In this document: one piece after another, positions 3,033 through 50,616 of the stretch
How positions within the stretch are numbered: the first letter of the stretch is position 1
How the letters are laid out: the number at the start of each line of letters is the position of its first letter
Assembly (NCBI GenBank): GCA_964016885.1
Contig: OZ024741.1
Location: forward strand, 299,832,001-299,896,000
DNA length: 64,000 bases
Direction: 5' to 3'
From: Eledone cirrhosa
Lineage: Eukaryota
Position numbers and translations under genes: made by a program
Notes under the pieces: model-generated
Told to the model about the DNA's origin: nothing
Database searches by the model: none
Seen by the model: only the letters and a program-made list of their open reading frames with translations

Positions 3033-3999
3033 ATGTGTGTGTCTGTGTCTGTGTGTGATGTTGACGATCACGAGAATTAATACTCTATGACGAAGTAAAT
3101 TTTGATATTCTTTCGTATAACTCATTTGATGCTCCTGTGAGTACATAGGTAGACGTCAAGAGTAACACAACTCACCAACTACACATAACCCATAATAAAG
3201 AATTCTATATATAGAGAGAGAGACATATACATGCACAACAACATATATTTATGTATATATATATATACATATATATTTCAGTGTGTCTGTGTATATATAT
3301 ATGTGTGTGTGTGTGAGTATATATCTAAACTTCAGCTCCTGACGAGACATTAACGACTGCATTCGGTGACAGAGTATATCAGCCCCTTCAGCAAAGATCT
3401 GTGTTTGCCAAGACTTCAATCGAGAATAGCCCGATAGGAACTAAGTGAAGATAAACGTTTGTTTAAATGACACACTCAATATCTATGCAAACGTTCAAAC
3501 GGATATTAACTCTCTATCCAAACTATAAACTCTATATATCTATTGGATTATGGATTAAAAGTAAATAGAAGGGTGATTAAGTCAGATATTAACATATCAA
3601 TCAACTTTTTAAAATGTAGACTTTGCGTTGTACTCTGTACAATAAAAAGAATTCTGAATGCACCAAGCATTGACTGTTTGCACCTAACGATCAAACCTTT
3701 GATAAACCCTATATGTTCAATGTAGTTGTGGGCAGTATATTTAGACGTGATTGTAACAATTGAACCATTTTCCATAAAGCTCAGAATCATCTATCACATA
3801 TCGGTCAAACAAAATTAGAAAGATAATCAACTTTAGTTAGCGAATTTATAGCTATTATGCTGCTATTATAAGCAACACATCCAACATAATAATATCAATG
3901 TGTCCGCATCACACATTAGACACAAACAGCTGTTTATAGATTATGGAACTTCAACGAGCAATGCAGTAGTTATCGCAATAAAAAATAATATGTTGACGT

Positions 4000-4600
4000 A
4001 TAATTTGATGAGTTGTACATTATAAGAACAATGTTCATCATTCAGCAAGAGTACCATTTACAAATCAGGGGATGTTAGTTCTTTATTTTTTTACTTGGAA
4101 AGCGAGCTTACTCAGTTTGAAAATATGTTTTTGTTGCCGTAATTGCATAGTCAAATAAATACCTCACGGTTGGTTTAATCCGACGTTATATGTGAAGGTG
4201 AAACGTCATGCCAGGAGTTTAAACAAACGAACGCGCTGTTGCTAACATCTTTCATTCCATTTAAGAAGCAACCTGCTAATTATCAACCAGTTTCAGCTAT
4301 ATCTGAAACTACAGTGTAAACATTGCGGTCGACTAATATGAACACCATTTGTGTTTGGAGACACACATTTCCAATTTCTAATTTTTTTCATTGCTGCTCA
4401 TGTCAAACGTTTTGGTTACGACTGTAATTACAAGATTAAAACTTACTAAAACGACCGTATTTCTGACCAGTGATAAAGAGTAATGATTAATACAATCCCC
4501 AGCCATATGAGAAGCGCAAGTTTCGATCGATTCTGCGCAGTCATCTCCATTCTCCATACAGTACGCGATTAAATTAGGCGATTTTCTCAACTATTCTTAA
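4000..4600 (-). mobile_element. Possible degenerate hAT (Charlie/ZBED-like) transposase fragment
   Basis: NLIAYC...CINHYSLSLVRN...SFNLVITVVTK loosely resembles the hAT C(2)H region. Confidence 0.3.
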
Positions 4601-5877
4601 TGGTGGTTGACCATTATTAGGATCAACTTAGAAGAGACGCATACATTTCTAATTTCAAAATGTACCTGTGGTTCTGAGATCACTCCATTTTTATCACACC
4701 CACACACAGACACGCACATACATACATACATACATATATATCGTGTTCCTATATATAAACCGATTTAGTGTGTCACTCTGACGTTCATAACATTTCTAAT
4801 TATATATAAACATATTAGATACTTTCTGGAACAAAGTCAACATACTTTAGCAATATCCAACAGTGTGATTATTTCTTACCACCTTCCCAAATCAACTTTT
4901 CCATGGCACAGTGAAAGTTTCAAATTACACGACGCAAGGATGTGTTTTCTTGAATGTAATAACATCCGATGAAAACCAATCTGTTCATACCAAATAGTAG
5001 ACGATATGTATACGCTTACACACAGACATGCATACTCAAACACACACACAAACACATGCATACTCACACGCATTCACACACACACACACATGCATACTCA
5101 CACGCACTCACGCACACACACATACATACACGCACACACAAACACTAGTGAAACTAGTGAAACGTTTTACGCACGTACACGATCATCAACGCTTGGCCAT
5201 AAGAAATGAACATCTAAACTCTACTTCGGTATTGAGTGTCTTCTTTAATTATTGTCACCTCTTCAAGAATCTACCTACTAAAGATTCTGTACCTACTGTA
5301 CCAAGCGTCAAACTAATACAACTCCTCATTGTACTGTGCTGTTTGTTTCCGTTTACTTTATTTACATTTTGCATCTATACATACACATATATAGGTATAC
5401 ATATAGATACACGTTCACACACACATATGCACATACACACACACTCATAAACACAAACACACACACACATACACACACATATATATATATATATTTATAT
5501 ATATGTATGAACGTGTATCTAAATGGGTTTACCTTTTTGTTCATACTTTCATGTACGTATATGTGTTGGTACATGGGCACATATAGGATGGCAAGAAGAC
5601 AGTAGCTGATAAGTATAGAGAGTCGAATGCACAAAATGTTCGAGCTCAAGTGTTATATACACAGATTCGGAAGTGCAAAATAAAACAAACGGTTGAATTG
5701 TGCCAAATATGCGTGCTTTCCTAAAATCGTGATTTTTAGTAAACAAAATTGTACTTCATGTCATTGAGTCTTTATTGCTTGGTATTAATAGACACATAAT
5801 TACATACTTATACACACACATATGAACACAATATAAACACACATACACACATACACACATACACACACTCATATATA

Positions 5878-6762: not shown

Positions 6763-6898
6763 TTTTTATTTTATAGAAGGAGCTTCTACAGGACTAGTAC
6801 TGTTTCATTTAGATGAAATCTTCAGGAAGCGCTTCCTGAAGATTTCATCTGAATGAAACAGTACTAGTCCTGTAGAAGCTCCTTCTATAAAATAAAAA
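6763..6898. repeat. Near-perfect spacerless palindrome made of two head-to-head HHR motifs
   Basis: Centre ggaagc|gcttcc at 6830/6831; arms ~68 bp. Confidence 0.92.
6831..6879 (+). ncRNA. Type I hammerhead ribozyme motif (mirror copy on - strand at 6782-6830)
   Basis: GCTTC-CTGAAGA-T TTCA TC TGAA T-GAAA-CAG tactagtc CTG-TA^GAAGC. Stems I and III are perfect; U.U at the base of stem II. Confidence 0.7.
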
Positions 6899-7157
6899 TA
6901 AAAAAATATATATATATATATATACACAAAATATTATAGATATTGTAAATACTTAACAGAGATTACAATTTAAAAAGGAAACACAAAATAACAAACTGGA
7001 ATATCAATTCAATTGGTTGAACGCATGAGGATGTTACTATAGAGTTATTTGTAATATGAGCCCTGCATATGAAAAGGACATAGTACATTTAATGTTAGTT
7101 CTTAATAGGAAGGTTAAAGAGAAGGGACGAAGGGAAAGTCTGGAAAGAAAACATGAA

Positions 7158-15824: not shown

Positions 15825-15909
15825 GAGTTAAGATTCAATGAGTATGTCAAAGAATGAGTTTTACAGTAGATTGGAAGCACTCTATGGAAAAATAAATTTC
15901 CAGAGGTAT

Positions 15910-16205
15910 TAATATTAAAATACAAATATTAATAAAATAGAGGTTCTTTTTATCAATTACATTTTATTATACATATTTCAGATGTACAACAGTACGTCCT
16001 CATCAGACACAATATAATGATACATTATATGATACTGAGATGTTAAGTGGTTAAGATTAAATATTAACCATTTAACATCTCAGGGTATGTGATGTATCAT
16101 TATATTTTGTCTGATGAGGACGTACTGTTGTACATCTGAAATATGTATAATAAAATGTAATTGATAAAAAGAACATCTATTTTATTAATATTTGTATTTT
16201 AATAT

Positions 16206-16207
<2 letters not shown>
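15910..16207. repeat. Fold-back inverted repeat, ~145-bp arms, ~9-nt loop, one HHR motif per arm
   Basis: 15910-16054 is the reverse complement of 16064-16207. Confidence 0.92.
16099..16157 (+). ncRNA. Type I hammerhead-like motif (mirror copy on - strand at 15960-16019)
   Basis: CTGATGA-GGACGTAC tgtt GTACATCT-GAAA-TATG-TA. Stem II pairs 7 of 8; stem I register is imperfect. Confidence 0.6.
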
Positions 16208-16238
<31 letters not shown>

Positions 16239-47117: not shown

Positions 47118-47175
<58 letters not shown>

Positions 47176-47228
47176 AATGTATTCTTGGCGCGATCACTTT
47201 GGAAAATCAATTGTCTAAATTTGAGGTA

Positions 47229-47305
47229 ACTTCCTGAAGAATCCGAAGCTCTAGATATCCAATGTTTTCGGATATCTTAAAATGCGGATGAAACCATGTA
47301 GAGGT
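47229..47305 (+). ncRNA. Type I hammerhead ribozyme, intact core
   Basis: ACTTC-CTGAAGA-ATCCG..AGATATCC..GGATATCT..CGGAT-GAAA-C CAT G-TA^GAGGT. Confidence 0.8.
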
Positions 47306-47890
47306 AATTAAATATATACACTTTTCTTCTAGTTTATTTTAAACCTAATTATGTTTAGTTGACTGTATATCTGGGCGATTCATACATGCTGTCGAAATAT
47401 TCGATAAACGATCCGTCGTAACCGCCGCGAAGGGGCCGCTTTCGGTTATTTGTCGGAGATTTCTTTATAGAAGCCTTTATTCTTATAGCTTGGTCTAATT
47501 GATTTTTATATGGTTAATTATGCTAACTGGGAGAGGAAACGGTATATATTTTATCTGGTGATTATATAGACATGTTTTATGATATATAGCTCTGATTATT
47601 TAATTCATTAATTCTTCATTGAGCCACAAAGTGACCCGTTGCAAAACACATATACATTTATGACTTTATATATATATATATGTAAACCTTTATATGTAAT
47701 AATCTCCCGTTAGGTTAAGATACAATTTTGACTGTATTGGGCTGCGCTTTCTAGCAAAAAACCTACCAGCGGTAAGCAATTAATCACATCCTTTCTAACT
47801 TGACCACTGCCACGTCACGATTCTTAGCCATGTTTGAATGTATTCTTGGCGTGATCACTTTGGAAAATCAATTGTCTAAATTTGAGCTAA

Positions 47891-47966
47891 CTTCCTGAAG
47901 AATCCGAAGCTCTAGATATCCAATGTTATCGGATATCTTAAAAGGCGGATGAAACCATGGTAGAGG
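47891..47966 (+). ncRNA. Type I hammerhead ribozyme, intact core
   Basis: CTTC-CTGAAGA-ATCCG...CGGAT-GAAA-CCATGG-TA^GAGG; stem III is the palindrome ACCATGGT. Confidence 0.8.
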
Positions 47967-48242
47967 AAATTAAATATATACACTTTTCTTCTAGTTTATT
48001 TAACACCTAATTCTGTTTAGTTGACTGTATATCTGGTCGATTCATACATGATGTCGAAATATTCGATAAATGATCCGGCGTAACCGCCGCGAAGGGGCTG
48101 CTTTCGGTTATTTGTCGGGGATTTCTTCATAGGAGCCTTTATTCTTATAGCTTGGTCTAATTTATTTTTTATATGGTTAATTATGCTAATTGGGAGAGGA
48201 AACGGTATATATTTTATCTGGTGATTCTATAGACATGTTTTA

Positions 48243-48333
<91 letters not shown>

Positions 48334-48780
48334 CTTGCTTGACAGAAAATTGATATAGATAGACAGATGTATATATGTAAATAAGTTTTTATTTTGTTAC
48401 CTATATTTACAAATACATATATACACACACAAATATATAAATACACAGTGTACATGTATATATTATAAAGAATCATATATACATATATACATTTACCATA
48501 TATTGGAATATGGCTACAGGTGTTACACAGTTGTATGTATATTTGCATTCTCTTTTTTTTACTATTCATACATATTTTTTTGTAAAACATGATATTTGAA
48601 ACTCACGTATTTAATCCCCCTGTGTGTAAAATCGCAGGAAACCTTGGCGAGTGCTTCGAGCACGCATCCACTTTCATACTAGACATCCTCATGACCCACT
48701 CCCAAGAATTGATTCTGGAGTTGTTTTCAAATCATCTATATCAAATATCAAATTTCTGTCAAGCATGTATACATATATAT

Positions 48781-49910
48781 TGTAAACAAACATCCCGAAA
48801 TAAGCCGTACAATGTCTAGCAACTATCGTTGCTCATGTGTTCAACACTGACAAACGAACGCTGTACTAGTTTCAGGCTTATTAGCTATCGTCAGATGGTT
48901 GAACATCTGAAAGTATATAGTTTCCTTATGCATATTAACGGCTGAGCAGCCTAATTTGCATATCGAGTGAGTTAATCGGCCGGGTTACAGAAAACGATAT
49001 ACGGAAAAAATGAAACGAAATTTCATTTCTCACTCTCAGTACGGCTGTTACTTAAATATAAGTATGTATACGTACATACGTATATGTATACATATATATA
49101 TATATATGTACGTATGGATTCACCGAACATTTATTATAATGCTCGGACGTTCAACCATCTGGCAGGAAGGTATACGTTGCTGACGATAGTTAATAAGCTT
49201 CAAACTAGTACAGCGTTCCTTTGTCAGTGTTGAACAAATGAGCAACGATGGTTGCTAGACATTGTACGGCTTAATTCGGGATGTTTGTTTACAAACACAC
49301 CGAGCATTATAATAAATGTTCGGTGAATCCGTACGTACATATATATATGTGTGTATGTATATATATATATATACATACTACTGTACGTCTGTATACATAT
49401 ATGTATGTACGTATACATACTTATATTTAACTAACTGCCGTACTAAGAGTGAGAACTGAAATTTCGTTTCATTTTTTCCGTTTATCGTTTTCGGTACCCC
49501 GGCCGATTAAGTCACTCGATATGCAAATTTGGCTGCTCAGCCGTTAATATGCATAACGAAAGTATATACTTTCAGACGTTCAATCATCTGGCAGGAAGGT
49601 ATACGTTGCTGACGATAGCTAATAATCTTGAAACTAGTACATCGTTCCTTTGTCAGTGTTGAACAAATTAGCAACGATGGTTGCTAGACATTGTACGGCT
49701 TAATTCGGGATGTTTGTTTACAAACACACCGAGCATTATTATAATTGTTCGGTGAATCCATACGTACATATATATATGGGTGCATGTATGTATATATATA
49801 TATACATACTACTGTACGTCTGTATACATATATGTATGTACGTATACATATTTATATTTAAGTAACAGCCGTACTAAGAGTGAGAAATGAAATTTCGTTT
49901 CATTCTTTCC

Positions 49911-49912
<2 letters not shown>
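48781..49912. mobile_element. Retrozyme/PLE-tail element: inverted copy (48781-49146) plus ~1.8 tandem units of ~429 bp
   Basis: Direct repeats offset by 429 bp, with a reverse-complement copy upstream. Three HHR motifs: 48858-48894 (-), 49174-49216 (+), 49603-49645 (+). Confidence 0.85.
49603..49645 (+). ncRNA. Minimal type I hammerhead motif
   Basis: ACGTTG-CTGACGA-TAGCT aata ATCTT-GAAA-CTAG-TA^CATCGT. The consensus of the three copies gives stem I ACGTTG/CAGCGT and stem II AGCT/AGCT. Confidence 0.65.
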
Positions 49913-49961
<49 letters not shown>

Positions 49962-49985
49962 TATTTACATATATATATATATGTG

Positions 49986-50047
<62 letters not shown>

Positions 50048-50052
50048 TGTAG

Positions 50053-50085
<33 letters not shown>

Positions 50086-50616
50086 TTGAATTAATAAATC
50101 GGAATATATACATATTCAATTCGTCGTTCTAGAAAAACTCAACGGTAATTAGTTGGGAAAATATCGTGTTCCAGGTCATACGCATACGTTAATATTACAG
50201 AAACAACAATAATTATATATTGTAAATAATTATAAAAAGACAGAACATATTTAGAATTTAAAATTATTACTTACATTACTAATTATACACTAGTTTCAAG
50301 TCATAAAGAAAAGATATAGGATAAATAGCAATTTAAAGACTTGGTTTTCATCAGTACGCATGTCTTTCTCTGTACTAAAAAATCTAAAATATCCTTTGCG
50401 ACATAAGTTGTAAACGAATTCATATGTATTGTTAAGTTGCAGATGTATCATCACGCTGTAATAGATAGGACAACATATACATTTTATAGCATCACGTTGA
50501 GAGCAACATGGTTCTTAGGGGGGCTAGAAGTAGCCCACCATCACTTTCATATAGTGCAGTGTAGAGCAGATTAATCAACATACATACTCATATATACATA
50601 GATACAAACACACACA

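Follow-up and report, generated by a model that had tools for sequence, protein, structure and literature searches.

A decayed two-armed hammerhead repeat in Eledone cirrhosa and the probable footprint of its insertion by a PLE enzyme

The hammerhead-bearing repeat at positions 48780-49916 of the window analysed here, a stretch of 64,000 nt of Eledone cirrhosa DNA, is one decayed and slightly atypical member, an ordinary dead copy, of a family whose sequence features place it among the non-LTR retrozymes, probably mobilised in the fashion of PLEs and distinct from an autonomous PLE. A Neptune-type PLE RT-endonuclease probably inserted it into a (TA)n tract, with both sides of the cut being primed. 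This is a new family of a known kind, and its interest lies in a testable footprint shared across the family and not in the dead locus. The sequence-only reading of this stretch had staked its case on the family not being single-copy and on the consensus not lacking the core or stems; the family proved to be high-copy and its consensus retains both.

Architecture of the locus

Unit positions (u1-u429) are numbered from window position 49143, which is u1, and sampled genomic loci are labelled L001-L170. An inverted unit followed by a unit and a partial unit of a 429-bp tandem had been proposed earlier, and alignment resolves precisely such a layout, namely a 367-nt inverted arm on the minus strand (48780-49146) placed head-to-head with 1.8 units of the 429-nt repeat on the plus strand (49147-49916). 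The plus arm comprises a first unit (49147-49571, u5-u429) and a partial second unit (49572-49916, u1-u343), which stops at the long end of the family and is followed by a (TA)n tract (49917-50086), the putative target site. Its two copies are spaced by 429 nt and are 94.5% identical over 345 columns. The inverted arm, followed leftwards, passes from u158 (49146) to u429 and then from u1 to u152 (48780/1), and is a circularly permuted near-unit covering about 424 of the 429 positions, which has suffered a 21-nt deletion and lacks 36 nt of the internal TA-rich tract. The arms meet 5' to 5' at 49146/49147, with u158 against u5 and 1-4 nt of letters common to both (49143-49147), so that the junction stands where the sequence-only reading had put it.

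Within the plus arm, the internal TA-rich tract (49332-49426) folds as hairpins and terminates at the short end of the family (u283/284). The segment of approximately 59 nt between the short and long ends (49858-49916) is predicted to form a hairpin and would be the region in which reverse transcription starts. The octamer ATGCAAAT (49521-49528, plus strand), also located within a predicted hairpin, is a possible promoter element; in loci L091-L159, 119 of its 152 matches fall at this site of the unit.

The outer end of the inverted arm is the atypical feature of the locus. It falls short of both fixed family sites, adjoining a short TA run, and is one of 7 cases that combine a long end with an end of another kind. 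The stop at u152 would reflect either off-site priming or later loss, and the letters to the left of 48780 are ambiguous between a short-end remnant and a neighbouring repeat.

The hammerhead motif and its decay

The family motif, built from 61 copies in the first 30 loci, is a type I hammerhead. Stem I has 6 bp and approximately 16 further pairs beyond a three-base bulge; stem II has 4 bp above a U·U base pair and is capped by a four-base loop; stem III consists of 2 bp inside the palindrome ACUAGU; and the cut site is GUA. The earlier description of a clean minimal HHR consensus thus stands in so far as the consensus is intact, but not as regards "minimal", given the long stem I and the 4-bp stem II over U·U. 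Judged from its predicted helices, the motif is a canonical-type type I hammerhead, as opposed to the min-HHR described in the available text of PMC4209133.

Each of the three hammerheads of the locus carries different lesions, as had been noticed, when scored against the columns of the family alignment. Hammerhead 2 (49148-49235 on the plus strand with its extended stem I; core 49180-49210) bears G12C at 49201 along with a tolerated change of C-G to U·G at 49190, and is predicted to be dead. Hammerhead 3 (plus strand, 49577-49664; motif copy 49603-49645) retains an intact core (49609-49639), but a G>T change at 49626 destroys a stem II pair and another at 49642 converts a stem I wobble into U·U, and it is predicted to be weak or dead. 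Hammerhead 1 (48858-48894, minus strand) also has an intact core with a predicted cut after 48864; its 5' strand of stem I has been taken out by the 21-nt deletion, which lies between two CTG triplets, and u57 T>C further disrupts a stem II pair, such that it too is predicted to be dead. Fold z-scores of intact copies lie near -3, and those of window hammerheads 2, 3 and 1 are -2.98, -1.48 and -0.68, respectively.

Across 21 distinct natural sequences, 96.3% of the cells in paired positions are paired. One stem I position occurs as U·G, G·U, A-U and C-G, a distal pair has switched from A-U to U·G in some sequences, and none of 500 shuffles reaches the covariation score. This covariation counts few events because the sequences come from related subfamilies, and the rows used for it were mostly pattern-selected in the core and stems II-III. 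The core has a change rate of 1.7% as against 4.2% elsewhere, and is intact in 77 of 87 copies from locus L091 onward, which were partly picked for intactness, and in 80 of 98 other copies. The "active" class in the accessible part of bioRxiv 10.64898/2026.07.22.740005 is defined by a succession of two intact hammerheads. This arrangement is absent from this locus, where every copy is damaged, and present elsewhere in the family, for example in L158 and L159.

The base of stem II has U·U where G-C is usual, and on this ground the hammerhead may be weak. An axolotl motif with a similar U·U is reported in the available portion of PMC7229834 to reach only 22% cleavage as a monomer, and 8 of 9 predicted dimers were inactive in vitro according to the part of bioRxiv 10.64898/2026.07.22.740005 at hand. 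When two short hammerhead fragments were cofolded, the strands paired via stem II and did not form a stem III dimer, for which reason the cofold lends no support to dimer action. A search of the window against Rfam at the gathering score gave no match, and a scan to E=10 gave 106 matches, with no hammerhead family among them; we regard these as chance matches, mostly of miRNA families to TA-rich parts.

Family size, subfamilies and sampling

The intact-core pattern has 24,270 exact matches in the 3.0-Gb genome and its reversed control has 0, which shows that the motif is neither a chance occurrence nor single-copy. At least three subfamilies can be recognized, with units of approximately 429 nt (A, to which the present locus belongs), 466-500 nt (B, approximately 78% alike) and 421 nt (C). 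Overall, the units span 421-500 nt with a GC fraction of 0.35-0.38, lack LTRs and are non-coding, no RT-like ORF being found in them. Divergence from the subfamily majority has a median of 2.6% among A copies, with the long segments of the window at 2.2-4.1%, and the units of a subfamily B array (L159) are 99-100% identical. Together with the number of intact cores, this identity bears out the earlier suggestion of an active ancestor, in the sense that the sequences support a recently active source for the family.

Of 160 mapped loci, 24 were set aside as overlapping duplicates and 29 because they contained only PLEs; after the further exclusion of clusters that were cut by a locus edge or had no match above 100 nt, 113 elements were retained, comprising 61 two-armed, 50 single-armed and 2 complex forms. 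The two-armed architecture is thus the commonest form of the family, and nothing special to this locus; it accounts for 32 of the 61 elements in loci that were sampled in chromosome order. Separately, a single-strand array of more than 20 units occupies G000:C3:72261500-72272800 (L160, L052, L051, L050, L040 and L011), in which the best matches are spaced 1,707-1,713 nt apart, as would be produced by local amplification of a higher-order repeat of four units. Tandem joints also appeared in sequencing runs with other organism labels (X4-X6), in 2-10 contigs at a depth below 40, compared with about a million for X1; these were not counted as cross-species conservation as they may be trace DNA.

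Two fixed ends and the pairing of a long with a short arm

The outer 3' ends of the family are found at two sites approximately 59 nt apart, u343 (long) and u283/284 (short), both of which run into (AT)n with a few matching letters. Genome-wide, 2,725 exact long ends run into (AT)n, against 2,937 copies in which the same motif is read through. The two-armed elements comprise 36 with one long and one short end, 2 with two long ends, 2 with two short ends and 21 that are unclassifiable or end elsewhere; the proportion of long-short pairs among the classifiable elements (36/40) has a p of about 1e-7 against independent choice. All 21 classifiable elements in the chromosome-order loci are of the long-short kind, one of them being a local duplicate. 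The 5' ends are scattered, and the arms run straight across the hammerhead cut sites.

The family displays an inverted 5'-truncated arm, a tail at one end and a microsatellite target. PLEs are described in the accessible text of PMC8557442 as leaving an inverted copy truncated at its 5' end, with a tail on one end only and a bias towards (TA)n, and PMC11167929, as far as it is available, describes a PLE protein that cuts and extends both strands, with two RT start sites bounding the tail. The fixed long and short ends therefore back the sequence-only reading of the layout as a PLE-type insertion devoid of coding sequence.

The inverted arm could alternatively have arisen at the DNA level, after insertion of the tandem repeat, by a fold-back or template-switch duplication. 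Exact fold-back junctions do occur in 6 of the 61 two-armed elements, the inverted arm here ends at a non-family site, and variants common to both arms would follow from such an origin too. However, the outer ends lie at fixed sites, with the two arms using different ones in 36 of the 40 classifiable elements, most junctions join unrelated phases, as does that of u158 to u5 here, and the inverted arm is 4.1% off the subfamily majority, u120 being the only non-majority variant that it has in common with both plus copies. We therefore consider this origin improbable. A still more remote alternative is that the pieces are nothing but debris from the terminal repeats of an autonomous PLE, truncated at the 5' side. 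PLEs are reported in the available text of PMC4209133 to yield numerous truncated copies whose hammerheads lie on opposite strands. Against this stand the head-to-tail units with no intervening ORF, in arrays that reach at least 10 units; moreover, just L036 and the L142 pair among the 50 single-arm elements lie near a Neptune ORF, and none does so as a 3' UTR, leaving this explanation very unlikely.

Insertion by a PLE enzyme at two primed strands, the reading we favor, can be set out as a series of probable steps. The retrozyme would be transcribed, perhaps aided by the internal octamer; the part of PMC2220036 available cites an snRNA-type promoter for a newt satellite. One broken strand would then prime at the distal site u343 and copy more than one unit, and the other would prime on RNA of the same kind, as a rule at the proximal site u283. 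Joining of both cDNAs 5' to 5' at variable points would give rise to the inverted arm. Thereafter the copies would decay neutrally to 2-4% from the subfamily majority, in the course of which their ribozymes are killed.

The nature of the template

Variants shared between the arms bear on the template. In subfamily A, opposite arms have 6.8% of their variants in common as against 2.2% for random subfamily-A copies, an excess that is modest, as expected if most differences arose after insertion, and 6 of 17 two-armed elements of this subfamily have no variant common to both arms. The common polymorphism at u13 is concordant between arms in 12 of 14 subfamily-A elements (p 0.01); this concordance was computed within subfamily A, as mixing subfamilies inflates the figure (73% vs 11%). 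Within multi-copy elements, u13 is uniform in 37 of 40 and mixed in 3. The window copies read C, C and T at this position, hence a single circle would require later mutation or conversion at this locus. The change C>T at u120 is found in all three window copies, as compared with none of the 18 subfamily-A matches from chromosome-order loci and 3 of the 31 remaining ones, samples that were not selected on this variant, and fits one source for the window copies; allele frequencies in L001-L030 are skewed toward the window's own variants. An excess of A>G on one strand, which would mark an RNA stage, is absent (68 vs 57 in subfamily A, 10 vs 11 in subfamily B), and no RNA-editing scars were seen among the variants of either subfamily.

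The 5' ends are not enriched at the cut site, with 4 of 129 within u60-78 where 6.8 are expected, which disfavors a cut linear monomer as the template. Monomers treated as circles are predicted to be strongly paired (z -5.0 to -8.5, 71% paired), and linear stretches mostly devoid of the TA tract have predicted folds with z of -4.1 to -6.9, making a circular template plausible. The template is likely to have been one of two molecules, a ligated monomer circle produced by hammerhead cutting, the chances of which we regard as evenly balanced, or an uncut multimer, which is somewhat less probable.

In the latter case the same PLE machinery would have copied an uncut read-through transcript of an array, with the hammerhead carried along and no circle needed. 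The lack of clustering of 5' ends at the cut site and the differing u13 of the window units agree with such a template, long source arrays exist (L160 and its neighbours), and hammerhead mutants had no effect on insertion in the available account of PMC11167929. On the other hand, core and stems have been kept, with compensating changes, across subfamilies only approximately 78% alike, u13 is largely uniform within insertions and the monomer is predicted to fold as a compact circle; taken as a full account, the uncut transcript is in our view a possibility, though less likely than not.

The more specific version of the favored reading, which we advance as tentative, is that a Neptune-type PLE enzyme acting as a dimer copies its way around a circle made by the ribozyme, the two ends of the break being primed at programmed sites 59 nt apart. 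If this is true, each insertion would preserve a trace of twin priming on a rolling circle, and the hairpin tail at u284-343 would act in cis as the signal that lets an RNA without any protein of its own hijack a PLE enzyme.

Neptune-type PLEs in the same genome

The genome contains an ORF-linked family (L071, L164) whose copies have two recurrent ends approximately 89 nt apart running into (AT)n and are often back to back, thereby providing an in-genome control with the same footprint. The ORF in L071 spans 730 codons, with an upstream repeat bearing a different hammerhead; it has RT-thumb and GIY-YIG look-alikes in the Atlas and a Zn-finger linker in its translation. We take it to be Neptune-type from these look-alikes together with known sequence motifs; sequence searches of Pfam and PDB left it without an identification. 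Such PLEs are abundant, with 31,133 first-look candidates (L071, L161-L170 and scattered loci), and short inserts made up of their terminal repeat, back to back, devoid of an ORF and bounded by two fixed ends, are likewise present.

A search for an autonomous PLE carrying the retrozyme terminal repeat, in which one Neptune family was tested, found none. No ORF with RT and GIY-YIG lies between the repeats. A loose-end motif had no exact match in the genome. The Neptune family beside L036 and L092 was rejected as the partner, since its hammerhead and end sequence differ, and the co-location of its ORF with the retrozyme at these loci fits shared (TA)n targets. A Neptune ORF lies within 700 nt in no single-arm element other than L036, which adjoins the middle of the ORF in the same sense, and the duplicated pair in L142, which is inverted relative to it; none of the 50 abuts the end of such an ORF.

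Several composite loci were encountered. L142:5385-7000, duplicated near 3700-4647, is a two-armed chimera in which a long-end retrozyme arm is joined 5' to 5' with a Neptune-type piece that comprises the endonuclease region and 3' part of the ORF and ends in (AT)n; it may represent two different RNAs primed at one break. In L036:1165-2790, a retrozyme arm enters a Neptune-type ORF midway and in the same orientation, and this ORF is itself back to back with its own endonuclease region, suggestive of either a template switch or a nested insertion. L159 and L049 have the same flank sequence, in inverted orientation, outside both ends, and on the one side of L159 that was inspected this flank consists of a Neptune-type ORF in truncated form.

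Other hammerhead repeats in the window

Three further repeats of this general kind are present in the window. One, at 47173-48251, consists of two copies 661 nt apart that are 95% alike over 418 nt, with cores at 47234 and 47895, a long stem II, a palindromic stem III and (TA)n flanks. A third hammerhead family, at 6770-6905, forms a perfect fold-back pair with cores at 6825 (minus) and 6836 (plus), and related motifs occur at no fewer than 19 places in the sampled loci. A fourth, hammerhead-like repeat at 15880-16210 is back-to-back, with cores at 16006 (minus) and 16111 (plus) and (TA)n flanks; the same type is seen in L130 and L157.

Relationship to known systems

In the literature covered, PLEs are proposed to mobilise animal retrozymes on the grounds that the two co-occur and have similar terminal repeats. 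In the family described here, thousands of insertions bear the PLE footprint directly, in the form of two fixed starts, a tail at one end and a (TA)n target. This footprint names the RNA segment and start sites that can be tested in the existing in vitro PLE system and allows circle and multimer templates to be distinguished. No description of such a footprint for retrozymes was found in the part of the literature covered.

The metazoan non-LTR retrozymes of PMC7229834 and bioRxiv 10.64898/2026.07.22.740005, so far as their text is available, have in common with the present family tandem non-coding units of a few hundred bases with GC below 50%, one type I hammerhead per unit, a self-paired monomer, thousands of copies and the presence of PLEs in the genome. 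The units here, at 429-500 nt, lie at or above the range of 150-450 bp given for metazoan retrozymes in PMC7229834, and two-armed fixed-end inserts are not described in the accessible parts of either source. Cleavage and circles have been demonstrated for those retrozymes, whereas in this family cleavage is predicted and circles are plausible. The axolotl HHR_Amex2 of PMC7229834, likened on motif features, shares the U·U at the base of helix II and a helix III of two pairs, but has a tetraloop where the present motif has a loop III of 2 nt within a palindrome.

The min-HHR of PLEs (PMC4209133, available text) shares the type I core and a palindromic helix III region, which is predicted there to permit dimers; it is distinguished by a helix I of 4-5 bp and by a helix II that has 7-8 bp, carries a bulged 5' base and is closed by G-C, neither of which is seen in the present motif. 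Chlamys elements such as MRC1 (PMC8557442, as accessible) are likewise non-autonomous PLE dependents with multicopy head-to-tail insertions, but are green algal and belong to a clade reported to be devoid of canonical hammerheads. Resemblance to the 3' end of a partner is known for such elements, a likeness not found here with the one Neptune family tested.

There are further parallels with the Neptune-type EN+ PLEs, as described in the available text of PMC8557442 and PMC11167929. The present family differs from them in having no RT/GIY-YIG ORF and a tail of approximately 59 nt as against the 30-40 bp reported for EN+ PLEs, and the sequence of the retrozyme unit does not match that of the one Neptune terminal repeat compared; it has in common with them partial tandems, an inverted 5'-truncated arm, a tail at one end, (TA)n targets and a hammerhead upstream of the 3' end.
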